A stretch of DNA of 64,000 bases from the NCBI GenBank assembly GCA_946402315.1, contig CAMIWC010000004.1:17509-81508 (forward strand). Reading direction: 5' to 3'. The notes under the pieces are model-generated. The model ran no database searches. It had not been told where the DNA came from and saw nothing but the letters and a program-made list of their open reading frames with translations. This document shows positions 16,156 through 61,774 of the stretch, in pieces (position 1 is the first letter of the stretch; each line of letters begins with the position of its first letter). The position numbers and the translations under genes were made by a program. The DNA comes from an uncultured Clostridium sp. (lineage in GTDB: Bacteria; Bacillota_I; Bacilli_A; RF39; UBA660).

Positions 16156-18097
16156 ATTTGGAAATGGAAAAGTAGAGAAGTCTAAAGACTTTTGGGGAAC
16201 TATAAAAAGATTAATAAAAGATTTAAAGAAGTTTCACTTATTGTTAATTGTTGCTATTTTATTAGCGGCAATTAGTTCAGTTTTTTCTATAATTGCTCCA
16301 GATAAATTATCAGATTTAACAGATGAAATAACTCTAGGAATAACTCCTAATATTAATGAAGAGAAGATTACTGATATTATGAGTAATCCAAGTATATCAA
16401 ATGAAGATAAACAAGAATTTATGCTTCTTATGAGTGAAGCTCAAAATAGTGATAATAAGACTGAGTTATTATCTAAAATGGATGAATTACCAGCAAGTAT
16501 TTATGATGAGATTAAACCAACTATAAATATGAATGCTATTAAAAATATTGCTTTATTCTTAGCCGTTATTTATTTAATTGGTGCAATCGCTAATTTATTC
16601 CAAGGAATAATAATGGCTATTGTAGCTAATGGATATGCTAAAGATTTAAGACAAGATATTAGTAAAAAGATTAATAAATTACCTCTTAAGTATTTTGATA
16701 CTCATGAAACAGGAGATATTTTATCGCGTATTACTAATGATGTAGATACAGTTGCTTTGAACCTAAATCATTCACTAGCGTCTCTCGTTATGAATATTAC
16801 AATGTTCTTTGGATGTTTGTTTATGATGTTTAAAACTAATTGGATAATGGGTGTATCTGCTGTAGGAGCTAGTTTAATTGGTTTTTCTTTAATGGCAGTT
16901 ATTCTTAGTAAGAGTCAAAAATATTTCATTAGAAAACAAAAAGAACTTGGTGATTTAAATGGATATATAGAAGAAATATATTCGGGTCATACGATTGTAA
17001 AAGCTTATAATGGAATAGAAGAAGCAGAAGATAAGATGGATATTCTAAACAAAAAATTATATTCTTCTAACAAAAACAGCCAATTCTTATCAGGACTTAT
17101 GGGTCCGATAATGGGATTCTGTGGTAACTTTGGTTACTTAGTTGTCTGCGTAGTTGGAGCTTTACTTGTTATGCACGATAGTATTACTTATGGTGTAATA
17201 GTAGCCTTTATGATTTACGTTAGAATATTCTCTAATCAATTATCACAAATGGCTCAAGCAGCAACTTCTATGCAATCAACAGCCGCAGCTGCAGAAAGAG
17301 TATTTGAATTCTTTGATGAAGAAGCTATGCCTAAAGAAGAAGTTAAACATGTACTTTATAAGGAAGACGTTAAAGGACATGTATGTTTTAAGAATGTTAA
17401 GTTTGGTTATGATGAAGATAAAACAATTATTAAGAAATTTAGTGCAGAAGCCCATCCTGGTCAAAAGATTGCGATCGTTGGACCTACTGGTGCTGGTAAA
17501 ACAACAATGGTTAATCTACTTATGCGTTTCTACGATATTAAGAATGGTGATATTACAGTAGATGGAATATCTATCCATGATTTAAGCAGAGAAAACATTC
17601 ATGATTTATTTATAATGGTTCTCCAAGATGTATGGTTATTTGAAGGAACTGTACGTGAGAATCTTAAATTTAATAATGAAAATGTTACTGATGAAGAAAT
17701 ATGGGAAGCTTGTAAAGTAGTTGGAGTTGATCACTTTATTAAAACTCTTCCAGGAGGGCTAGATGCAGTTATAAATGATAATGATTCAATAAGCCAAGGA
17801 CAAAAACAATTACTTACAATAGCGCGTGCTATGATTGCTAATCGTCCGCTTCTTATTCTTGATGAAGCAACATCTAATGTTGATACAAGAACAGAAGAAC
17901 TTGTTCAAAAAGCAATGGATAAATTAACTAAAGGTAGAACATCATTTATTATTGCTCATAGATTATCTACTATTCGTAATGCTGATTTGATATTAGTTAT
18001 GAAAGATGGTAACATTATAGAGCAAGGTAACCATGATTCGTTAATAAAGAAAAATGGATTCTACGCAGAATTATATAATTCACAATTCCAGAATTAG
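16145..18097 (+). CDS. ABC exporter permease/ATPase half-transporter carrying the consensus-site subunit
   Basis: Walker A is GPTGAGKTT and Walker B is LILDEATSNVD (canonical Glu). The signature is degenerate (SQGQKQL). It overlaps the upstream partner by 11 nt. Confidence 0.9.
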   Translation: MPPRFGNGKVEKSKDFWGTIKRLIKDLKKFHLLLIVAILLAAISSVFSIIAPDKLSDLTDEITLGITPNINEEKITDIMSNPSISNEDKQEFMLLMSEAQNSDNKTELLSKMDELPASIYDEIKPTINMNAIKNIALFLAVIYLIGAIANLFQGIIMAIVANGYAKDLRQDISKKINKLPLKYFDTHETGDILSRITNDVDTVALNLNHSLASLVMNITMFFGCLFMMFKTNWIMGVSAVGASLIGFSLMAVILSKSQKYFIRKQKELGDLNGYIEEIYSGHTIVKAYNGIEEAEDKMDILNKKLYSSNKNSQFLSGLMGPIMGFCGNFGYLVVCVVGALLVMHDSITYGVIVAFMIYVRIFSNQLSQMAQAATSMQSTAAAAERVFEFFDEEAMPKEEVKHVLYKEDVKGHVCFKNVKFGYDEDKTIIKKFSAEAHPGQKIAIVGPTGAGKTTMVNLLMRFYDIKNGDITVDGISIHDLSRENIHDLFIMVLQDVWLFEGTVRENLKFNNENVTDEEIWEACKVVGVDHFIKTLPGGLDAVINDNDSISQGQKQLLTIARAMIANRPLLILDEATSNVDTRTEELVQKAMDKLTKGRTSFIIAHRLSTIRNADLILVMKDGNIIEQGNHDSLIKKNGFYAELYNSQFQN

Positions 18098-23184: not shown

Positions 23185-23400
23185 ATGTTAAAAGTAGAGT
23201 ATGAATATAAAAAAGGATTCCTTTATGTTAACTTAGAAGGAATCCTAACTATTAAGAGTAGTTTTGAATTGTCTAATTCACTTATATTTATTTCTAGATG
23301 GAATAATATAGATAATATAGTTTTAAACATAGAAAAAGCTATAGGACCAAATAAATATCTAAATTATATCTTAGAAGATTTATTTGATTATATAGCTTAA
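23185..23400 (+). CDS. Small hypothetical protein (71 aa)
   Basis: It has a strong SD (AGGTGAT) and a plausible codon composition. I recognised no family. Confidence 0.35.
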   Translation: MLKVEYEYKKGFLYVNLEGILTIKSSFELSNSLIFISRWNNIDNIVLNIEKAIGPNKYLNYILEDLFDYIA

Positions 23401-24380
23401 GTTGTTGGATTATTATTTCCGTTATCTGGAGGAGTAGGAACTGATCCATCTACAGATGGTATTAATATTTCAGATACATCTGTTGGCTTATAGTTAGTAT
23501 TAACTACAGGTTCAGTTATAACATTTTCTTCTATAGGTGCAACTTCCTCTGTAATAAATGTTTTTGGTTTAGGTTTTTCTTCTACAGGTGCTGGTATAGG
23601 TACAGTAGGTTGAGCATGTGGATCAACTTCTGGTCTATTTAATTGATTTTGATTATTAGTAACTTTACCTAAATCATTAACTGTTAATTGTGTTTGTTGT
23701 CTTTCTACATCATATACATCTCTAGCATTATAGAAATCTTTATCTATCCAGAATACTCTAAGCATTGGATTAATAATTATTAATGCTATTCCTGTATAAG
23801 TTAAAACTGTTTTTAAATCTTCAGAAGACTGATCAGTATTATTACTATATAAACTACTTGAAGTATATGAACTTGAACTATATGAATTAGATCCTAATAT
23901 ACTAATTGAACTAGAACTATCATTGAATGCTGATAATAAGAATAATATTGTTAATATTCCAGCTGCAACATATTGAATCTTTTTATGAGTACTATTAACA
24001 TATGGTATTTCAAATACAAGAGTATTTAATAAGACTAGTGTTTCTATTTTAGAGAAGAATTCAATAGCTTTATTAAGTTCTAAAACAGCATCATAATTCT
24101 TAGCAGATATTAACATTACATCGATAATCATTAGAATCATATAAACTAATGTTAAAGCTGCTCCAGCATAAGCGATAAATAGATTTTGTCTATTACCGAA
24201 TATATTAGCAATTCTTGAAAGAATAAATACTCCTACTAAAAGATTAGTTGCTAATAAATATATAATCATACCAGTTTCGCCATAAATAGAAATCTTACCT
24301 AAACTGATCATTGCTAAAGCACCAAATACAAATACTGTTACTAAAATTAAAGCTAAATATATTTTCTTAAATGTGTCCAT
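23397..24380 (-). CDS. Membrane protein with Ser-rich and Pro-rich low-complexity C-terminal tail
   Basis: About 6 TM helices are followed by SSSSISILGSNSYSSSSYTSSS and PTVPIPAPVEEKPKPK regions. The start is set at 24380, behind an AGGAGG SD. Confidence 0.6.
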   Translation of the reverse strand: MDTFKKIYLALILVTVFVFGALAMISLGKISIYGETGMIIYLLATNLLVGVFILSRIANIFGNRQNLFIAYAGAALTLVYMILMIIDVMLISAKNYDAVLELNKAIEFFSKIETLVLLNTLVFEIPYVNSTHKKIQYVAAGILTILFLLSAFNDSSSSISILGSNSYSSSSYTSSSLYSNNTDQSSEDLKTVLTYTGIALIIINPMLRVFWIDKDFYNARDVYDVERQQTQLTVNDLGKVTNNQNQLNRPEVDPHAQPTVPIPAPVEEKPKPKTFITEEVAPIEENVITEPVVNTNYKPTDVSEILIPSVDGSVPTPPDNGNNNPTT

Positions 24381-24492
24381 ATATAGGCCTCCTATCATTA
24401 TCATTTTATCATATATTAAACTATATGGATTATAAGAAATTAGTGCATTATGTAAAGTAAATATGATATTATAGTTAATAGGAGGATATCTT

Positions 24493-25203: not shown

Positions 25204-25769
25204 ATAAACAAGCAATACTTGAAGGATTATTATTTGTAGTTGGAGATGATGGACTTACTTTAAAACAAATAGAAGATATACTTGAAGTTACTCCAGAAGA
25301 AGCAAATAGTTTAATAGTAGAACTTAGAAAAAGTTATGAAGATGAATCTCATGGTATAAAGATTAGTATTTTAGGAGACCGATTTAAACTAAGTACTAAA
25401 AAAGAACATCGAGAATACTATAAGAAATTATTGGAAGATGAAGATAGTAATCTATCTCAAGCAGCTTTAGAAACTTTAGCTATAGTTGCTTATAATGAAC
25501 CATTGACTCGTATTATGGTAGATGAAATAAGAGGGGTAAATTCTCGTGAGATGTTACATAAGTTAGTTGCTAAAGGACTTATAAAAGAAGTAGGTAGAAG
25601 TGATCTTCCAGGACGACCTATTTTATATGCTACTACTAGTGAATTCCTAGATTACTTTGGACTTGCTTCTAAAGATGAATTACCTAAATTCGATATGATT
25701 GTAAATGAAGATGAAGATATAGATGAAGAAGATCTATATCATTCAAGATATACTGAAGATGAAGAATAG
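25200..25769 (+). CDS. scpB: Segregation and condensation protein B
   Basis: Motifs LEGLLFVVGDDGL, ETLAIVAYNEPLTR and GRPILYATT are present, and the C-terminal tail is acidic. Confidence 0.9.
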   Translation: MNKQAILEGLLFVVGDDGLTLKQIEDILEVTPEEANSLIVELRKSYEDESHGIKISILGDRFKLSTKKEHREYYKKLLEDEDSNLSQAALETLAIVAYNEPLTRIMVDEIRGVNSREMLHKLVAKGLIKEVGRSDLPGRPILYATTSEFLDYFGLASKDELPKFDMIVNEDEDIDEEDLYHSRYTEDEE

Positions 25770-26604
25770 ATTATTATTCACAATCACAGTCCTTTTATTT
25801 GTTTTTGTAATACTATATGGTTTAAGTAATAGTAGTAATAAAAATAAAGTAGAAAAAGAAGTATTAACTTATTTAAAAGATAAATATCATGAAGAATTTA
25901 AAATAAACAGTATTAAAGAATATAATTATGTCTTTGAAGAAGAATATGAAATAAGTGATGCCTTTGTTTATGAAATGGAAGTATCTTCTCATAGATTAGT
26001 TAGTTTTAAAGTGTACTATTATGAATATAGAAATAATTCATATGAAAAGAATGATGATTTAGATTTAATCTCTCCTGGAATATATGAGAATTATATTTAT
26101 GAATATAAAATTAGAGAGATAAAGAATAAGTACTATAAAGATATTCTAGGTATTATGAGTAAATCTAAGAATATAGAATTTAGTCTAGATAATATAGCTG
26201 TTGGACTAGATAATGTTTTATTTAAGAATAGAAATGATTCTAAAGAAAGAATAGATTTATATGATAAGTACTATAGTTTTAATAAGAGTGTTAGTGATCA
26301 AGAATTCTTAGATACATATTATTCTATTTCTAAGACTGATTCTTTAATTATTACTATGGATATTAACGATGATATAACTCCTAATAATATAGAGGAGTTT
26401 AAAGAAGAGATAAGAACTCTTGTAAAGTATTTAAATAAAAATCATATTTATAATTATGATATTAATATGAATCTAGATGGTTATGTTAATGCACGTGCTA
26501 CTAGATATACCGACAATAATAAAGAACAAATATATTTAATATTTGACTATCCTTCGTATTATGATACAGAAGATAGTTTTAATGTAATTATATTTGATTT
26601 ATAA
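25759..26604 (+). CDS. Hypothetical protein with an N-terminal membrane anchor
   Basis: The sequence begins with the signal-anchor-like MKNRLLFTITVLLFVFVILYG. The start is ambiguous (25723 or 25759). Confidence 0.5.
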   Translation: MKNRLLFTITVLLFVFVILYGLSNSSNKNKVEKEVLTYLKDKYHEEFKINSIKEYNYVFEEEYEISDAFVYEMEVSSHRLVSFKVYYYEYRNNSYEKNDDLDLISPGIYENYIYEYKIREIKNKYYKDILGIMSKSKNIEFSLDNIAVGLDNVLFKNRNDSKERIDLYDKYYSFNKSVSDQEFLDTYYSISKTDSLIITMDINDDITPNNIEEFKEEIRTLVKYLNKNHIYNYDINMNLDGYVNARATRYTDNNKEQIYLIFDYPSYYDTEDSFNVIIFDL

Positions 26605-26634: not shown

Positions 26635-27654
26635 ATGTTTTTAAGTGCATGTGAAAACTATTCATTTTTATCTAGTATTTTGCTTATAAAAAGAATAATA
26701 GAAATAGCTTGTATGCTTGTTCCGTTATTCCTAGTTTTAACTGCTGGTATAGCACTTGCTAAGATAGTAGTTAATCCTAATGTACAAATGACTAGAAGAG
26801 ATGTAAAAAAGATTGCTAATAAGTTTATAGCAGCCGCAGCAGTTTTCTTTGTTCCATTATTTGTTAGTATTCTAATGACTACTTTAGGACGTACTAGTGT
26901 TCTTAAGACTGATTGTTGGACTAATGCTAATAATGAAGCAATAGCGGTATATCGTGCTCAAAAAGAGATGGAAGATGCAGCTGAGAAAGAAAGATTAGAT
27001 TCAGAACATGCTGAAGCTGAAAAAACAAGAAAAGAAGTAGAAGAAGCTAGAGAAAGACAAAGACAAGAAAATGAAAAGAAAACAGAAGAAGAACTAAAAA
27101 AATATCAACAAACTGGTGGATTAAGACTTGGAGATGTAATTTATTATTGCCAAGCAGATTATTATATGTATCCATATGGTTCATATGGAACTATTAGATC
27201 TCATGGATGTGGTCCTACATCTTGTGCAATTATTGCTTCTACATGGTTTGGTCCTGAAGGACATTCTCCTGTTGATACAACTAATTGGATATGTGCTCAT
27301 AATGGATGTACTTCTAATGGTAGTTATTTCTATGTTTTAACTAATTATCTAGAAACTCTTGGAGTACAAGCTAGTGAATATCTTGCTTGGAATAAACCTA
27401 ATATAGAAAGAATGAATGAAGCTTTATTATCAGGAAATAGTATGGTTATTATTCTAGTACACGAAGATGGAGAGGCTGATACTTGCGCCTTTACTAATGG
27501 AGGACACTACTTAGTAATAACTGGAATAGTAGATGGTGAGTATTCAATTGCCGATCCAGCTGGTGGTGGACCTGAACGTAATAAACACACTTGGCCAGAA
27601 AGTTCATTTAGTGCTTGTGATAGAGTATCATTCTATATATATACGAAACCGTAG
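26635..27654 (+). CDS. Membrane-anchored papain-like (C39-like) cysteine peptidase domain protein, a putative cell-wall hydrolase
   Basis: The N-terminal two-TM module is homologous to that of the ORF at 60745. An E/K-rich coiled coil follows. The C-terminal domain has a candidate Cys (HGCGPTSCA), His (GGHYLVITG) and Asp (ADP). Confidence 0.65.
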   Translation: MFLSACENYSFLSSILLIKRIIEIACMLVPLFLVLTAGIALAKIVVNPNVQMTRRDVKKIANKFIAAAAVFFVPLFVSILMTTLGRTSVLKTDCWTNANNEAIAVYRAQKEMEDAAEKERLDSEHAEAEKTRKEVEEARERQRQENEKKTEEELKKYQQTGGLRLGDVIYYCQADYYMYPYGSYGTIRSHGCGPTSCAIIASTWFGPEGHSPVDTTNWICAHNGCTSNGSYFYVLTNYLETLGVQASEYLAWNKPNIERMNEALLSGNSMVIILVHEDGEADTCAFTNGGHYLVITGIVDGEYSIADPAGGGPERNKHTWPESSFSACDRVSFYIYTKP

Positions 27655-27662
27655 GTGAGATT

Positions 27663-28289
27663 ATGAAGAAGATATTATTAATTATATGCTTAATGTTTTT
27701 ATTAACAGGATGTACTGCTAATTATGAATTAACTTATAAAAAAGGATATTTTACTGAAGAGATTACTATTTATGAAGATAAAGAAGTAGCTAAACATGAA
27801 GAGTTTCCATCTATTACCAATATTAAAGCTAATTCTAATAAAGTTAAAATAAATGAAGACTCATATTATACTATTGAACATTCTACTGATGAAAAGAATA
27901 ATATATTAAAAGCAACTTATGTTTATAAAGATTTATCTTTTGATAAATCACTTGTATATAATGATTGCTTTTCTGAAAAGAGTTTCGTTGATGGAGATGA
28001 AAGTGTTTATATATATCTAGGTGGAGAAATGACTTGTGAACACTTAGAAAATGCTACTATAACTTTTAAAACAGATAAGCAAGTTATTAAACACAATGCT
28101 GATAAAGTTAAAAAAGGAGTTTATTCTTGGGATAGTATTCCTACAGATGGAATAGTTATTGAAGTTAGTAAAAAGAATATTAGTAAAGATGCTAATATGA
28201 TTCCTCCTGTTATTAGAATAATTATTATTGCTATATTACTAGGAATAGGAATCTATATATTAAAAAAATATAATGGTGTAACAGATTAG
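27663..28289 (+). CDS. Lipoprotein with an additional C-terminal TM anchor
   Basis: It has the lipobox LLTGC and a C-terminal helix IRIIIIAILLGIGIYIL. It is homologous to the ORF at 60078 (TGC-x-ANY-x-L-x-Y-x-x-G-x-FTE). Confidence 0.7.
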   Translation: MKKILLIICLMFLLTGCTANYELTYKKGYFTEEITIYEDKEVAKHEEFPSITNIKANSNKVKINEDSYYTIEHSTDEKNNILKATYVYKDLSFDKSLVYNDCFSEKSFVDGDESVYIYLGGEMTCEHLENATITFKTDKQVIKHNADKVKKGVYSWDSIPTDGIVIEVSKKNISKDANMIPPVIRIIIIAILLGIGIYILKKYNGVTD

Positions 28290-29127: not shown

Positions 29128-32076
29128 ATGGATGAGATATTAGAATTAGTAAATAATCATATTGATGAAGTACTAGCTAATAGTGAATTGCTTCAAAAAG
29201 TATGTAGTTATCTTAATACTAGTTTTAGTCTAACTAAAGAAAATTTAGCAACTAATCCTAATATTTTAAGAATTAGTGATTTCATAATGCCTAAAATAGA
29301 AGAAGATCCTTCTATTGTTTTATTGTTTCCATATGATAATATAGATGATACTTTAGCTAATACTTATTTAAGAAGCGCAGTTATGAATCATTTTATTCCA
29401 ACCTATGAACAAATAAAAGAAAACCCTTCAATGGGTCCACATATACCTATAGGTGTTTTAGAGAGATTATTAAGAACTAATCCTAGAATGATTAAGTTTT
29501 TTCCTAAAAGCGAAATAAAAAATTATGCTAATAAAGTAGAGTTCGTTGCAACAGAAGAAGAACTATTAGAGGTTCCAGAACTATGTGAATTTCCAGGAGT
29601 TATGGAAAGATCTATTGAGGAGAATCCTCATTTATTAAAATATCTTCATACTGTTATAGATACTTTTGTTATTTATGATGCTTTAGAACAAGTAGAATTA
29701 ACAAGACAAGACTTTTTAGATAATCCATTCTTATGTACTGATTCTACTATTTGTGAAGGAAAATATCTATATTATTATAGGTCTTTAACTACAGAACAAA
29801 AAATAGTTATAGTAACTGAACTAATTAGTTTAGGAAGAATTGATGAAATAAGTGAATTACCATTCTTTAACCATACACTTAATCCAATGCTTGAAGATGA
29901 TGCAGATATTGATAAAGTAGTTAGATTAATAAAGGTAATAACACCAGACTTAAGTAATGCAGAGAATAATAATGTTAATGATGAAAATTGGTCAATATTA
30001 AGTGCTATTATAGATGGAATAGGTGCTTATAGATATCGTCTTGGAAAAAATACTTTTAAATTTAAAAGTGCTGATGTATTAATAGATAGATTTGAAAAAT
30101 ATTTCTTAGAGATGAATCCTGAAAACGAGGATATATTATTAGGTATTCTAACTAGAGAAGTAGTAGATTTTATGGAAGCTACTCCTGAAGATGATGTTGA
30201 AGAATCAGTAAGAATTAGTTTATTAAATATATATAGAAAGTATGAAAACAATAATAGAACTATGCCTACTGAAGGGGAGGATAGAGCATTAATTACTGAA
30301 ATCTGTAATTATATGTTAAACTTCCATCGTGATAAATTTATTGCTTCAGAAAGAGTTGCAGTAGAAGAATTAATTAATAAGTATTTCTCTTTAAAACAAA
30401 CTAGAATCCAAAGCATTCTTCATAGTAAAAGAAGAAATAGAGTTATATCAAGACTTAGAGATTTCAAAAATCGTGGAGTAGATTGTTATGACGATTTTGA
30501 TAGATTAAAGATAACACTAGAATTAAGAGAATTAGATCCTAATTTTAAAGATAGTCAAATAGAAGAAATATATAAACATATAATAGATACTTTACTTGAA
30601 ACAGGAAATATTAATACCGACGGATTATATAAGTACTTAGAAGAAACTATTTTTGGAGAAAGAGAAATAATTCCAGCATACTTAAAAATAGGATTAAAAG
30701 AATGTACTGCTAAAATAGTGGATATTATAAATAAAGAAATAAATGAATCTGCTAGAGCTATCAGATTAGCTCCAGAAGAATCAGCAATAACACTTAGAGA
30801 TAGAGCTAAATATACTAGAGAATTTGTTCCTAAAAATCTTTGTATGACTAATAAAGGAATAACAGATAGTACTTTAGCTAGATTAATAGTATTACTTATG
30901 GATGATCCAGATAGATGCAGAAAAGCAACATTAGAAATAGATAAAGCTGAACCTTTAAGAAGAATTATACCTTTCTTTGGATCAATTCCGAAAACAAAAG
31001 AATTATCTGTTGAAATGTTAATGGATATACTTGCAAATTATCCAAGAATAGAACGTAGAATTAACATGAATGGCACAAGTAAAAATCTAGAATTTTGTTT
31101 TGAAAAACTAGTAGGATTTGCTACTGATTATGGTATGTCATCTAGTTTACTTAGAACTATTATTACACCTAATATAGTAGGTTATATAGGAGAACATAAT
31201 GTAGGTAAATATGCTTTATTCTATTTAGAGCATTTATTTGATAGACAAGATTCTACTATACCTATTGTTAATGGAGAAACAGGAAGATATACATATAAAT
31301 CTAGTTTCAAAGATCAAGATCGTATGGTAATAGGGAAAATGTATGATGATAGTTGTTTAGATTTAAATGATTCTTCAGGATATGATACTTTCTTTGAATG
31401 CCTTGCTGGTCCACATGGAGATGCCATTTTAATTAGAGATATTACTAGTAATGAATTAATTGGAAGAGTACTTGCTATAAGAAGAGGAAATCTTATTCAA
31501 TTACAATTAAGAAACTTAGATGGTAGAATTGATGAAAAAGAATATCAATTATTAATTAGTGAAATTGGTAAACAAATGATGACTGAAGCTCAAGAAAAAG
31601 GAGATAATCTAGAAGCAATTGTTGTCGCAACGGCACCTCATACCGGAAAAAGAGAAGATAGGTTAAAAACTGAATTTCCGCATGCTGACTGGGGAGGTTT
31701 CTATGAAATGGTTATTCCTCAAGAAGATGTTGAATTTAATTTTACTGTTAAACCAGTAGTAACTTATCATCCACAAAGAGAAAAAATAAGAGAACAAGCT
31801 ACTGATCAAGAATTAACTAGATTAAAAGCTATAAGTATTAAAATGATGCCTGATTCAATGGCAAAAGAAGATCTTGAACGAAATTTTGAACCGGTTATTT
31901 TTGAAGGTACTGGTAATCAAATATTATTAGGAGAAGATTGGTACATTATTCATAATAATGGAGAAATAGTAGAAGAGGTAATTGTACCAACTAAAGATAA
32001 TAGACAACAAGTAGAAATAGGCGTTGTTAAAGAAAAACTAGGATTAAGTAAAGGAGCTGGTACTCATTATGGTTAA
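29128..32076 (+). CDS. Large hypothetical cytoplasmic protein (982 aa)
   Basis: It has a strong SD (AGGGTGAT), no TM or signal sequence, and no NTPase motifs. Short NP-containing motifs recur in the first ~220 aa. Confidence 0.7.
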   Translation: MDEILELVNNHIDEVLANSELLQKVCSYLNTSFSLTKENLATNPNILRISDFIMPKIEEDPSIVLLFPYDNIDDTLANTYLRSAVMNHFIPTYEQIKENPSMGPHIPIGVLERLLRTNPRMIKFFPKSEIKNYANKVEFVATEEELLEVPELCEFPGVMERSIEENPHLLKYLHTVIDTFVIYDALEQVELTRQDFLDNPFLCTDSTICEGKYLYYYRSLTTEQKIVIVTELISLGRIDEISELPFFNHTLNPMLEDDADIDKVVRLIKVITPDLSNAENNNVNDENWSILSAIIDGIGAYRYRLGKNTFKFKSADVLIDRFEKYFLEMNPENEDILLGILTREVVDFMEATPEDDVEESVRISLLNIYRKYENNNRTMPTEGEDRALITEICNYMLNFHRDKFIASERVAVEELINKYFSLKQTRIQSILHSKRRNRVISRLRDFKNRGVDCYDDFDRLKITLELRELDPNFKDSQIEEIYKHIIDTLLETGNINTDGLYKYLEETIFGEREIIPAYLKIGLKECTAKIVDIINKEINESARAIRLAPEESAITLRDRAKYTREFVPKNLCMTNKGITDSTLARLIVLLMDDPDRCRKATLEIDKAEPLRRIIPFFGSIPKTKELSVEMLMDILANYPRIERRINMNGTSKNLEFCFEKLVGFATDYGMSSSLLRTIITPNIVGYIGEHNVGKYALFYLEHLFDRQDSTIPIVNGETGRYTYKSSFKDQDRMVIGKMYDDSCLDLNDSSGYDTFFECLAGPHGDAILIRDITSNELIGRVLAIRRGNLIQLQLRNLDGRIDEKEYQLLISEIGKQMMTEAQEKGDNLEAIVVATAPHTGKREDRLKTEFPHADWGGFYEMVIPQEDVEFNFTVKPVVTYHPQREKIREQATDQELTRLKAISIKMMPDSMAKEDLERNFEPVIFEGTGNQILLGEDWYIIHNNGEIVEEVIVPTKDNRQQVEIGVVKEKLGLSKGAGTHYG

Positions 32077-39456: not shown

Positions 39457-39489
39457 TTTTTCAGGTCTTGTTTTTGTGGTATAATAAAA

Positions 39490-39698
39490 TTGTCTAAAGG
39501 AAAGGATGTTTTCTTTTAAAACCGACTAAGTTTACGATAAGGGAGTTCGGATCATTAACCGGTGTTGAATGCCATTAATCTTGGAATCCTAAAGGTTAAG
39601 TATGGACACCCACCTGCTTGATTAGGGGCGGGTTTTATCGCTAAACATTCTTCTTCTAGACAATTGTTAAAAAAAAGAAGAGCAAGTGCTCTTCTTTT
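39490..39698 (+). ncRNA. Structured intergenic ncRNA candidate, possibly 6S RNA (SsrS-like)
   Basis: It has its own extended -10 promoter (TGgTATAAT, 39477-39485). A ~21-bp closing helix forms between 39490-39511 (TTGTCTAAAGGAAAGGATGTTT) and 39643-39663 (AAACATTCTTCTTCTAGACAA). Inner pairing AAAACCG/CGGGTTTT is possible. The region is locally GC-enriched. A terminator follows at 39675-39698. No ORF is present. Confidence 0.45.
39675..39698. terminator. Bidirectional rho-independent terminator shared by the ncRNA candidate (+) and lexA (-)
   Basis: The stem AAGAAGAGCA / TGCTCTTCTT is flanked by an A-run on one side and a T-run on the other. Confidence 0.7.
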
Positions 39699-59691: not shown

Positions 59692-59748
59692 TATATTGTC
59701 TTTTAATTTAAAAAAAGATATAATTACAAGAGAAAAGAGAGTGATACA

Positions 59749-60069
59749 ATGAATATGCAATTTATCCAATATGCTGCGATTTTAGTTATTATTTTAATAA
59801 TTTTATTAGCGGTATTAAAAGCAGGAAAAAAAGATGCACACTTAGAACTAAATAAGTTAGTAGATTATTTAGGTGGAAAAGATAATATTCTTAATACTGA
59901 GACTAATATGTCTAGATTTATAGTTACATTAAAAGATGTATCTATAGTTAATAAAGAAGGTATTCAAAAACTAGGTGCTAAAGGTATTGTTGAAATAGAT
60001 AATCAATTAAAAATAATTCTTGGAGAAAATTCTAAACAATTAAAGAAATATATAGATGAATTAAAATAG
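59749..60069 (+). CDS. Membrane-anchored PTS EIIB(Glc)-like domain protein lacking the phospho-Cys
   Basis: One TM helix is followed by LVDYLGGKDNILNTETNMSRFIVTLKD...LGAKGIVEIDNQLKIILG. This aligns with the EIIB consensus ...LGGxxNI....C-x-T-R-L-R..., with Asn in place of the active-site Cys. Confidence 0.55.
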   Translation: MNMQFIQYAAILVIILIILLAVLKAGKKDAHLELNKLVDYLGGKDNILNTETNMSRFIVTLKDVSIVNKEGIQKLGAKGIVEIDNQLKIILGENSKQLKKYIDELK

Positions 60070-60077
60070 GAGTTATT

Positions 60078-60734
60078 ATGAATAAAAAGATTGGTTTATT
60101 AATATTTTTAGTACTTATATTAACTGGATGTAAAGCAAACTACGTTTTAGAATACGAAAATGGTACATTTACTGAACATTTAGAATTTATAAGTAGTGCT
60201 GATACTTATATAGAAGATGAAGGGCATCCATCATACGAAGCATTAAAAGAGAATAATGTTTCTGCTGTTAATGATGGAAGTGAAAAATGGTCAGTAGATC
60301 ATGGTAGTAGTAAATATGATATAAAGATATCTCATACATTAGAGAATACTACTTTAAACGATATTACTCTTCCAGGAGAATGTTTTGCACATCATACTTA
60401 TAAAGAAAACAATAATACAATATATTATTCCGCATTCGGAGATTTTAGTTGTGACTATTTAGATGAAGGTAGTACTTTTACTTTAGTAACAAGTGCTAAA
60501 GTATTAGATAGTAATGCAACTTCTAAAGAAAACAATAAATATATTTGGGATTTAAGTGACGAAAAAGTTAGAAAAGATGGTATTTCTTTCCAAATATTAA
60601 AAGAATCTAAGGAAAAAGATATGAATAAGAATAGAAGTGCTGATCTTATTCCTTGGTATGTAAAATTTATAATTTCTATAATATTTATTGCTGTTATAAT
60701 GGGGACAGTAATATATATGAGAAATCGTAGTTAG
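60078..60734 (+). CDS. Lipoprotein with an additional C-terminal TM anchor (paralog of 27663-28289)
   Basis: It has the lipobox ILTGC, a C-terminal helix (YVKFIISIIFIAVIMGTVIYM), and an N-terminal motif shared with the paralog (CKANYVLEYENGTFTE). Confidence 0.7.
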   Translation: MNKKIGLLIFLVLILTGCKANYVLEYENGTFTEHLEFISSADTYIEDEGHPSYEALKENNVSAVNDGSEKWSVDHGSSKYDIKISHTLENTTLNDITLPGECFAHHTYKENNNTIYYSAFGDFSCDYLDEGSTFTLVTSAKVLDSNATSKENNKYIWDLSDEKVRKDGISFQILKESKEKDMNKNRSADLIPWYVKFIISIIFIAVIMGTVIYMRNRS

Positions 60735-60744
60735 GAGGTAAGTT

Positions 60745-61716
60745 ATGTTTTTAAAAGCATGTACTGATTCAAAGTATCTATCTACTATTTTATTTTCAAA
60801 AAGATTTATAGAAATTATTTCTATGGTTGTACCAATTGCTTTGATATTAACTGTTGCAATTACATTATTTAAAATAGTAACTGATGATGATATGAAAAAC
60901 TATAAATCTCATTTAAAGAGTATTTATGGTAGAACAATTGCTGCAGTATTAGTATTCTTTACTCCAACAATTGTCAACGTATTAACATTAGCTTTAGGTA
61001 CTAATGTAGTAACAAGTAGTGAGTGTTGGAAAAATGCTAATCCTACTACCATAAAAGTGTACCAAGAAGCAGAAAAACAACAAGAAGAAGCAGAGGCTGC
61101 TAAACTAAAAGCAGAAAAAGAAAAAGCTGATGAAGAGAGAAAAGTATTAGAAGCAACTAGAGAAGCTGCAAGAGCTAAAAATGAAGATCAAAGTGAAGAA
61201 GCTAAGCAAAGAGCTTTAGCGGCATCTGAAGAAGCTAGTTGGGCTGGTACAGGTACTGCTAGCGCTACTGCTGCTGAATTAATTCGTGTTGCTTTATCAA
61301 AAGTTGGAATTAAAGGAAGACCAAATGAAATAACTAGAGGTTATGGAGCAATTGGAGGTAGTTATGATTATCACTGGTGTGCTGCCTTTGTTTGGTACGT
61401 ATCTAGTTTATCTGGAGTATATCCTGAAAAGGTTCCTCATAAGACAGCTGGAGTTCAATCATATATGTCTTATTTCAAAGGAAAAGGACAATATCAAATC
61501 TCTGCTGGTCATGGAGGTACTTATGTTCCTAAAATGGGAGATTATATTTTCTTCGATTGGGAAGGTAATGCTTATGACGGAGACCACATTGGTATTGTAA
61601 AGACTGTAGAAGGGGGAGAAGTATTAACTATTGAAGGAAACTCTAATGATTCAGTTGCTGAAAGACATTACAGTTTAACAAATCGAAATGTCATTGGATA
61701 TGGTGTATGGGAATAA
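60745..61716 (+). CDS. Membrane-anchored CHAP-domain peptidoglycan hydrolase (paralog of 26635-27654 in its N-terminal module)
   Basis: The N-terminal two-TM module (MFLKACTDSKYLSTILFSKRFIEIISMVVP...ECWKNAN) is followed by an E/K/A coiled coil and a CHAP domain with Cys (YHWCAAFVWY) and His (GDHIGIV). Confidence 0.8.
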   Translation: MFLKACTDSKYLSTILFSKRFIEIISMVVPIALILTVAITLFKIVTDDDMKNYKSHLKSIYGRTIAAVLVFFTPTIVNVLTLALGTNVVTSSECWKNANPTTIKVYQEAEKQQEEAEAAKLKAEKEKADEERKVLEATREAARAKNEDQSEEAKQRALAASEEASWAGTGTASATAAELIRVALSKVGIKGRPNEITRGYGAIGGSYDYHWCAAFVWYVSSLSGVYPEKVPHKTAGVQSYMSYFKGKGQYQISAGHGGTYVPKMGDYIFFDWEGNAYDGDHIGIVKTVEGGEVLTIEGNSNDSVAERHYSLTNRNVIGYGVWE

Positions 61717-61774
61717 CTAAGTTATTCCTTTTTCTTTTTGTAATTTTATATTATAATTTTTAATAGGTGATAGT

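Follow-up and report, generated by a model that had tools for sequence, protein, structure and literature searches.

Two gene modules, each pairing a predicted membrane-anchored cell-wall enzyme with a lipoprotein, lie in a 64-kb stretch of DNA from an uncultured Clostridium sp. (positions 17,509 to 81,508 of contig CAMIWC010000004.1; this whole stretch is here called the window). Our analysis follows up a preliminary description, made from the sequence alone, of the segment 60078-61716 (copy 2 of the module), whose partner module (copy 1) occupies 26635-28289. The four open reading frames (ORFs) which that description had placed at 60078, 60745, 26635 and 27663 are all present there. ORFs 60745-61716 (323 amino acids, aa) and 26635-27654 (339 aa) encode the enzymes, each headed by an anchor, and ORFs 60078 and 27663 encode the lipoproteins. 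The parts of the two modules are as follows:

26635..27654, + strand: copy 1 anchor (aa 1-99), charged helix (aa 100-160) and Peptidase_C39_2-like domain (aa 164-339)
27663..28289, + strand: copy 1 partner lipoprotein, 208 aa, 8 nt downstream of the anchor-C39 gene
60078..60734, + strand: copy 2 partner lipoprotein, 218 aa (homology to ORF 27663; AlphaFold2 model)
60745..61041, + strand: copy 2 anchor domain, aa 1-99 (Pfam, NCBIfam, hhalign and AlphaFold2)
61042..61236, + strand: copy 2 charged helical stalk, aa 100-164 (AlphaFold2 and composition)
61264..61713, + strand: copy 2 CHAP domain, aa 174-323 (PF05257, invariant residues and Foldseek)

The module genes are closely spaced, with gaps of 8-10 nt and ribosome-binding sites. 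Their order differs between the copies, as had been claimed: copy 1 runs from enzyme to lipoprotein, which is the usual order, and copy 2 is the exception, running from lipoprotein to enzyme. With BLASTP under compositional adjustment the two anchors align without a gap over the first 143 residues at 58/143 identities (41%; E=1e-34), and the local score of anchor residues 1-106 (226) lies far above those of 2000 shuffles (30.8 +/- 5.3, maximum 55; z=36.9). A chance likeness between two AT-rich transmembrane (TM) segments, which the preliminary description had set against its own proposal, is decisively excluded by these values. The ECWKNAN/DCWTNAN motif that it had picked out is indeed present in the two anchors, and its Cys is C94. 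The lipoproteins are likewise homologous, as it had maintained (28% identity over 184 residues, E=1e-21); their ectodomain alone gives z=19 against shuffles, and each carries an LTGC lipobox and, at its C-terminus, a TM helix. Each module is a pair of anchor-enzyme and lipoprotein, the two modules are paralogous, and the relationship is statistically solid.

Anchor, stalk, catalytic domains and lipoprotein

The anchor of copy 2 comprises an N-terminal segment with Cys6, a first TM helix, a short positively charged loop, a second TM helix and the ECWKNAN motif with Cys94, and it has no signal peptide. Six columns are invariant among 41 anchors (Cys6, Leu12, Leu33, Phe71, Pro74 and Cys94), and a disulfide between Cys6 and Cys94, joining two presumably extracellular ends, may reasonably be expected. 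Several comparisons connect this hairpin with the pilins of type IV secretion systems (T4SSs). ORF 60745 itself gives 20.0 bits against Pfam T4SS_pilin (PF18895), below the cutoff of 26.6, and E=0.031 against the NCBIfam 'Mbov_0395 family pilin-like conjugal transfer protein'; ORF 26635 gives no match to PF18895 at E<=0.1. At the level of the family, T4SS_pilin is matched by 44 of the 150 best anchor relatives at E<=1e-3 (best E=3.3e-9), one of which (P0071) reaches 29.2 bits. A hidden Markov model of the anchor, in turn, retrieves the small pilin-like proteins of T4SS clusters at 1e-13 to 1e-21, including those of four genes in the cluster described below as locus L001. Profile-profile comparison by hhalign aligns the anchor family with 12 small pilin-like proteins, of which eight belong to the T4SS clusters L001 and L022 and four are further small homologues, at 99.2% and E=1.1e-19 over 80 columns. 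Cys residues flank the hairpin of the stand-alone pilins as they do in the anchors, an invariant one ahead of helix 1 and others behind helix 2, and among these pilins the anchor comes closest to the one that lacks a signal peptide and whose gene immediately precedes VirB6. Because of the family matches, the L001 pilins and the hhalign result we conclude that the anchor, judged by sequence, is a VirB2-like T4SS pilin hairpin and a divergent member of that superfamily.

The AlphaFold2 (AF2) model of the CHAP protein (mean predicted local distance difference test score, pLDDT, 89.3) places the hairpin at 9-46/50-84, both helices with pLDDT >90 and 4-5 K/R in the loop between them, followed by a short helix at 89-97, a helix at 100-164, a disordered linker at 165-173 and the CHAP domain. 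The helix at 100-164 is a single unbroken run of 65 residues (pLDDT 86-98), 48% of them charged and 11% hydrophobic, in which the hydrophobic heptad a/d positions come at best to 17%; the corresponding helix of copy 1 is 54% charged and 13% hydrophobic, with a best a/d value of 24%. The 'charged coiled coil' of the preliminary description is charged but hardly looks like a coiled coil, its heptad hydrophobicity being poor and the AF2 model giving one long helix. The stalk is probably a single alpha-helix spacer of the ER/K type rather than a canonical coiled coil, and in the model would measure ~10 nm if fully helical. The best structural neighbours found with Foldseek are the CHAP endolysin Ly7917 (E=3.5e-4), the autolysin Cg1735 (helix plus hydrolase), an NlpC/P60 protein and PlyC; the FtsEX/RipC complex of Mycobacterium tuberculosis is a weak further neighbour (E=0.047, probability 0.41).

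The swap of catalytic domains holds, in that both domains exceed their Pfam cutoffs: CHAP in copy 2 (PF05257, 41.2 bits against a cutoff of 26, E=2.4e-10) and Peptidase_C39_2 in copy 1 (PF13529, 41.6 bits against 24, E=2.3e-10). BLASTP finds no similarity between the two C-terminal domains beyond residue ~160. The active sites are intact: C212, H281 and N299 of the CHAP domain are invariant in 18 sequences (catalytic Cys212 at nt 61378-61380, His281 at nt 61585-61587), and Q173, C192 and H291 of the papain-fold C39_2 domain in 11 (Cys192 at nt 27208-27210, His291 at nt 27505-27507). The CHAP domain, which is the only part of its protein recognized by the PHROG collection, matches endolysin families there at E=2e-14, and from its domain identity it is predicted to be a peptidoglycan amidase or endopeptidase, the substrates being read from that identity as well. 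When 185,579 species genomes were scanned with the single protein, only CHAP-domain matches were returned, mostly from Oscillospiraceae and irrelevant apart from the best one, a VirB1-like hydrolase of the T4SS cluster L001, whose CHAP domain is 38% identical to that of copy 2 (E=2e-25). The C39_2 domain of copy 1, for its part, is 44% identical (E=5e-26) to that of a SpoIID+C39_2 hydrolase in another such cluster (L026). The anchor, lipoprotein and catalytic-domain matches together mean that these three parts of both modules all have relatives in one kind of T4SS cluster.

In the lipoprotein of copy 2 the lipobox Cys18 lies at nt 60129-60131, the conserved Cys102/Cys125 belong to a beta-rich ectodomain, and a basic tail follows the C-terminal TM helix (aa ~192-214). 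The protein belongs to a family of 116 homologues of 208-269 aa, plus two fragments (128 and 176 aa), which lies essentially outside the curated families. A search of PDB sequences with the lipoprotein profile found no relative. The AF2 model, built with 106 sequences (pLDDT 83.9), has LppM of M. tuberculosis (2nc8) as its only significant fold match in the PDB (Foldseek E=6.6e-5, probability 1.0, TM-scores 0.41/0.49, root-mean-square deviation 5.7). LppM shares the unusual succession of lipobox, soluble domain and C-terminal TM helix, and binds glycolipids (PMC5217060). The Pfam LppM model PF21946 is matched by 3 of 106 members of the lipoprotein family (best 2.3e-6), and the lipoproteins of the window give no match to it at E<=0.05-0.1. 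The lipoprotein is LppM-like in layout and, as its structural model suggests, may be so in fold, though not by the Pfam model.

The extent of enzyme exchange became apparent with an exhaustive HMMER search using a two-sequence anchor profile, a word-indexed protein search having given only 1 and 14 matches. The anchor family numbers 2038 representative clusters (at 50% identity) at E<=1e-3, and 314 at E<=1e-10. Among the best 150 relatives, 118 have at least 250 aa, and the anchor stands at the extreme N-terminus in 114 of these 118, followed by a median of 228 residues; in half, a highly charged segment comes straight after it. The C-terminal domains of the best 150 comprise CHAP (22), ELLD (8), NlpC/P60 (8), C39_2 (8) and GDSL (6), more rarely M23 (3), VanY (3), an S9-type esterase (3) and M15_4 (2), and in single cases C70, a beta-lactamase fold, S11, glucosaminidase, YkuD and S13. 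This variety of wall enzymes behind an N-terminal anchor bears out the domain shuffling on a conserved anchor that had been proposed. The further proposal, that anchor and lipoprotein form the functional core, stands in part. The pairing recurs in at least seven chromosomal contexts, in which the lipoprotein adjoins anchor-CHAP, anchor-C39 and anchor-esterase genes; in one anchor-esterase locus (P0015) the neighbour is a lipoprotein fragment at the contig end. However, some anchors occur without the lipoprotein: neither an anchor-S11 carboxypeptidase gene between core genes (P0025) nor the gene of the anchor-Big_2 protein P0071 has a lipoprotein neighbour. Moreover, the lipoprotein family also follows T4SS hydrolases with a different, single-TM anchor. 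Our search of the literature found no description of pilin-hydrolase fusions or of this lipoprotein.

Related type IV secretion clusters

The first of the T4SS clusters, reached via the CHAP domain, lies at 667-15440 of L001, a locus from an uncultured metagenome-assembled genome (MAG) labelled Bacilli; the other T4SS-cluster loci are on unlabelled metagenome contigs. L001 holds genes for a TrbL_4/VirB6-like protein, a VirB4-like protein, VirD4, a TM+CHAP hydrolase, an M23 hydrolase and four small pilin-like proteins. L022, a second such cluster, was reached from a small pilin. The gene order runs VirB6-like, PrgI-like, TraC-like, VirB4, hydrolase, lipoprotein, hydrolase, VirD4 (L001, L022, L024, L026, L028, L033, L043 and L046). 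The first hydrolase carries CHAP, M23+CHAP or SpoIID, and the second M23, SpoIID+C39_2 or VanW; those of L001, L022, L024, L026 and L033 share a single-TM scaffold that is not pilin-like. The lipoprotein gene has the large VirB1-like hydrolase immediately ahead of it and the second hydrolase or VirD4 behind it (L001, L024/25, L028, L033, L043 and L046), and in L026 it occurs twice, once behind each hydrolase. The lipoprotein is a fixed, conserved component of these clusters. Four clusters (L001, L024, L028 and L033) end at a VirD4-rhodanese gene and show no relaxase in their flanks; the next gene is RmuC in all of them but L028, which has another gene there.

L001 and L022 each carry, in addition, an array of 4-5 divergent VirB2-like pilin genes. 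The L001-type clusters resemble the T4SS of Patescibacteria, which combines VirB2-like pilin arrays with adjacent hydrolases (PMC12102498), both being essential there (PMC12102498, PMC12857230). A 2025 review holds that VirB2, Patescibacteria apart, is otherwise absent from Gram-positive T4SSs (PMC12857230); the pilin arrays of L001 and L022 suggest that this statement needs widening, and a T4SS with such arrays in a Bacilli-labelled MAG bears on the stated diversity of these systems.

Chromosomal setting of the modules

The modules of the window sit apart from any such cluster. A phmmer comparison of the window ORFs with all L001 ORFs that are 70 aa or longer matched the anchors, the lipoproteins and the CHAP domain and nothing else, with no VirB4, VirB6 or VirD4 among them; nor is there a T4SS gene in a 21-kb stretch of the contig around copy 2. 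On the source contig (ENA ERZ12289775 NODE_355, 73.8 kb) the genes around copy 2 are of a housekeeping kind (IleRS, DnaB_2, SerRS, a glycosyltransferase, PrsW, PAP2, RmuC and AsnA), and the GC content is flat at ~27% across the window. Plasmid and phage collections contain no anchor relative, and the plasmid collection no lipoprotein relative.

Both positions are kept in other genomes. Copy 1 lies between scpA-scpB and yceD-rpmF. L031/L032 and L040 repeat the order ScpA-ScpB-X-enzyme-lipoprotein-YceD-L32, the proteins of L031 being 60% identical; in L019 and L039, which are shorter loci, at least enzyme-lipoprotein-YceD is preserved, and the L019 proteins are 52% identical. Orthologues of the anchor-C39 protein and its lipoprotein are found in the same position in L019, L031, L039 and L040. 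The neighbourhood of copy 2 (SerRS...glycosyltransferase-EIIB-...-PrsW-PAP2) recurs in L030, from a Bacilli MAG (GCA_017541325.1), where anchor-CHAP genes stand on both sides of the lipoprotein gene (L030:4970-7646); their products are 80% identical to each other and 65-67% to that of the window gene, which points to a lineage-specific tandem duplication. The upstream of these two copies reads WCSEF, not WCAAF, at the catalytic Cys. A metagenome scan seeded with the lipoprotein gave 12 loci, eight of which have an anchor-enzyme gene immediately upstream, the others being two T4SS clusters, one locus that is too short for a judgement and one lipoprotein alone. Two new chromosomal contexts of anchor-CHAP with lipoprotein were found, one with XerD-like, VanY, GyrB-ParE and CdsA genes and the other with aminoacyl-tRNA synthetase, sigma factor and QueA genes. 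We considered that the modules might be decaying remnants of a T4SS, an idea set aside on account of the invariant catalytic residues and of synteny held at 50-67% identity.

Three further features lie at or near the apparent transcription unit of copy 2:

59696..59724, + strand: promoter-like site TTGTCT-17-TATAAT, in the 57-nt gap upstream of ORF 59749 (consensus scan only)
59749..60069, + strand: small EIIB-like membrane protein (PF00367, E=2.7e-7)
61709..61729, + strand: intrinsic-terminator-like hairpin, 9-bp stem and T run, overlapping the anchor-CHAP stop codon

Promoter-like sites are no commoner in this AT-rich DNA than in its shuffles, so that the site at 59696..59724 is weak evidence; the hairpin at 61709..61729 is likely the end of the transcription unit. 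The EIIB-like ORF is the first gene of what appears to be a three-gene unit, ending 8 nt before the lipoprotein gene. Its 106-aa product has an N-terminal TM helix and a phosphotransferase system EIIB-like domain; it contains no Cys at all, which makes the usual phosphorylation impossible. Its orthologue in L030 matches at E=3.8e-58. Further conserved module genes were sought and rejected: ORF 25723, the EIIB-like ORF 59749 and others are common to close relatives only, and never to the T4SS clusters.

Other genes near the modules may be recorded here. Two membrane proteins flank scpAB, one multi-TM with a Ser/Pro-rich tail (23397-24404, - strand) and the other a 293-aa single-TM protein (25723-26604, + strand) encoded directly upstream of the anchor-C39 gene; both are kept in L031/L032 only, and phmmer found neither in the compared T4SS-cluster and other anchor loci. 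Just after rpmF the window has a 982-aa ORF (29128-32076, + strand), to which a 961-aa ORF of L019, lying downstream of rpmF and two genes and with no Pfam match on record, is likened by size alone. A 6S (SsrS) RNA gene is found at 39488-39666 on the + strand (Rfam RF00013, 49.3 bits against a gathering score of 46.4). About 6 kb past the end of the window on the source contig (L018:19513-20972) is the start of an unusually large, 1545-aa protein of the FtsK/SpoIIIE family, which could be a secretion or DNA-translocation ATPase. Genes with N_methyl, the type IV pilin methylation motif, occur a few kb from modules in L030:11924-12169, L031:8258-9127 and L036:967-3033, one of them fused to LRR_5 repeats.

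Proposed function and comparison with known systems

The homology of all the parts, the intact catalytic sites, the exchange of enzymes, the recurrent pairing with the lipoprotein and the syntenic location among core genes are matters of observation. We take them, with modest preference over the alternatives below, to describe T4SS-derived, membrane-tethered wall-remodelling modules that act on the cell's own wall, the homology being firm and the function inferred. The VirB2-like hairpin (~100 N-terminal residues) would insert into the membrane without a signal peptide and with both ends outside; this N-out/C-out topology is suggested by the basic inter-helix loop, by VirB2 itself and by the fact that a wall enzyme must work outside the membrane. 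The charged helix of ~65 residues would then serve as a rigid spacer, holding the catalytic domain ~10 nm above the membrane and within the wall, where it could cut peptide stems or amide bonds of peptidoglycan by means of CHAP in copy 2 and C39_2 in copy 1. The LppM-like lipoprotein would be tied to the membrane twice, through its N-terminal lipid and its C-terminal helix. Co-translated with the enzyme, it most likely binds the anchor or juxtamembrane region and positions or restrains the enzyme; that its partner should be the shared, non-catalytic part is suggested by one lipoprotein family serving unrelated catalytic folds. In an AT-rich, uncultured lineage of Bacilli the pilin hairpin would have come to anchor wall-maturation and wall-lytic enzymes in general, and the modules of the window would be vertically inherited housekeeping genes rather than part of a mobile conjugation element. 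Action on the cell's own wall is suggested by the DD-carboxypeptidase, VanY, LD-transpeptidase and esterase cargos, which speak for a part in wall metabolism at large; the non-lytic cargos (S11, VanY, YkuD and GDSL) fit this better than they do hole-punching or killing.

Several points weigh against this interpretation. Function, topology and the contact between enzyme and lipoprotein are all inferred. K19/R20 just before the first TM helix are poorly suited to an N-out topology. The window's own anchors stay below the T4SS_pilin threshold, the link to pilins being made by family-level and profile-profile evidence, and the lipoprotein model fits LppM only moderately (TM-score 0.41-0.49). The two anchor-enzyme loci P0025 and P0071 do without the lipoprotein. 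Finally, the absence of T4SS genes covers the 64-kb window and the 21-kb stretch, so that action in trans with a T4SS elsewhere is possible.

The last point leads to the strongest alternative, which we hold to be appreciably less probable though deserving of weight: that the modules are dispersed accessories of a chromosomal T4SS encoded elsewhere, with the pilin-like domain docking on VirB6 or polymerizing as a minor or tip pilin, and the hydrolase opening the producer's wall or riding the filament to a neighbour. The anchor is, after all, homologous to pilins encoded in 4-5-gene arrays in T4SS clusters including that of a Bacilli MAG, and closest to the signal-peptide-less one upstream of VirB6; the lipoprotein and both catalytic domains have relatives in those clusters, which look chromosomal and show no relaxase in their flanks; and in Patescibacteria pilin arrays and hydrolases are essential (PMC12102498, PMC12857230). 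Yet neither the window nor the 21-kb stretch around copy 2 has a T4SS gene, and the modules lie within operon-like strings of housekeeping genes (scpAB...yceD-rpmF). A C-terminal cargo of ~225 residues on each subunit would, moreover, be hard to fit into VirB2 packing, and DD-carboxypeptidase, LD-transpeptidase and VanY cargos make little sense on a pilus.

A more daring version, which we offer as an outside chance, makes the fusions cargo-bearing pilins: a relaxase-less chromosomal T4SS would pull the hairpin out of the membrane, place it at the tip of or along the pilus and so display wall-cutting enzymes on a stalk, with which to breach or graze on neighbours. If true, a T4SS with a VirB2 array, so far reported only for Patescibacteria, would be at work in gut Bacilli with reduced genomes.

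Slightly less probable still, and improbable in its own right, is the reading of each pair as an antibacterial effector, a hydrolase toxin, with its immunity lipoprotein. The bacteria-killing T4SSs of Xanthomonas and Stenotrophomonas use lipoprotein immunity proteins, and the tight coupling of adjacent hydrolase and lipoprotein genes, the lipoprotein homologue behind each of two successive hydrolases in L026, and the free swapping of hydrolase domains, as in polymorphic toxins, would all agree with such a role. Immunity proteins are, however, normally specific to one catalytic fold, and here a single lipoprotein family accompanies CHAP, C39_2, esterase, SpoIID and M23+CHAP enzymes; it is on this ground that we reject the reading. 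In addition, a two-helix hairpin anchors the enzyme, with no evident signal for its release or delivery, and position and sequence are kept among species in core neighbourhoods, without the hypervariability of effector-immunity pairs. Lastly, the N-terminal likeness might arise from hydrophobic membrane segments that AT-rich DNA encodes in two unrelated proteins, and the genes of the module might lie together by coincidence. This notion has in its favour only the low-GC composition and retains a negligible probability, being refuted by the alignment statistics (BLASTP E=1e-34; shuffle z=36.9 with the anchor, z=19 with the lipoprotein ectodomain), with six invariant columns in 41 sequences and the recurrence of the pairing in at least seven genomic contexts also standing against it.

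On the favoured reading of membrane-tethered modules for the cell's own wall, parts of a secretion system (the pilin hairpin, the hydrolase domains and the lipoprotein) appear to have been reused as a general means of anchoring wall enzymes, in a large, uncultured, AT-rich branch of Bacilli that is common in gut metagenomes. The identities of the parts, a T4SS pilin and an LppM-like T4SS lipoprotein, are what is new here beyond the preliminary description, and through them two unnamed families (the anchor, with ~2000 clusters at 50% identity, and the lipoprotein, with at least 116 homologues) gain a structural and genomic setting. The tie of an LppM-like fold to wall hydrolases and T4SSs may also bear on the function of LppM-type proteins generally.

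The likeness to known systems is, in each case, partial. With VirB2/TrbC-type pilins (PF18895) the anchors share the two-helix hydrophobic hairpin, the short basic loop and the Cys residues flanking the hairpin, but the hairpins of the window head enzyme fusions of 323 and 339 aa, lack a signal peptide and lie away from VirB4 and VirB6. In the same way, a T4SS or conjugative element of the Gram-positive MPF_FATA type differs from the window modules, which have no adjacent VirB4, VirB6-like or VirD4 gene. The window lipoproteins share with M. tuberculosis LppM (Rv2171) a lipobox and a C-terminal TM helix on either side of a beta-rich ectodomain, which has ~160 residues; they differ in missing PF21946, and LppM is known as a glycolipid-binding virulence factor, a paper on which discusses no partner hydrolase or T4SS (PMC5217060).

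Among wall hydrolases, the FtsEX-controlled autolysins PcsB, CwlO, RipC and Cg1735 likewise combine a long helical region with a C-terminal CHAP or NlpC/P60 domain near the membrane. These proteins, however, are secreted and held by the extracellular domain of FtsX via true coiled coils, whereas the window enzymes have a membrane hairpin of their own, an ER/K-like helix and a lipoprotein partner in place of an ABC-type complex. The Gram-positive VirB1-like T4SS wall hydrolases are represented by PrgK of pCF10, TraG of pIP501 and CwlT of ICEBs1. Such enzymes have in common with those of the window the anchoring in the membrane and the interchangeable hydrolase domains, and those of the T4SS clusters in related MAGs have the same lipoprotein behind them; they differ in having a cytoplasmic N-terminus, one TM helix, a conserved middle domain and a place beside VirB4, in contrast to the pilin hairpin, charged helix and housekeeping neighbours of the window enzymes. 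By analogy, then, the module would work like the helix-tethered autolysins and the VirB1-type hydrolases, while by architecture and context it is a member of neither.

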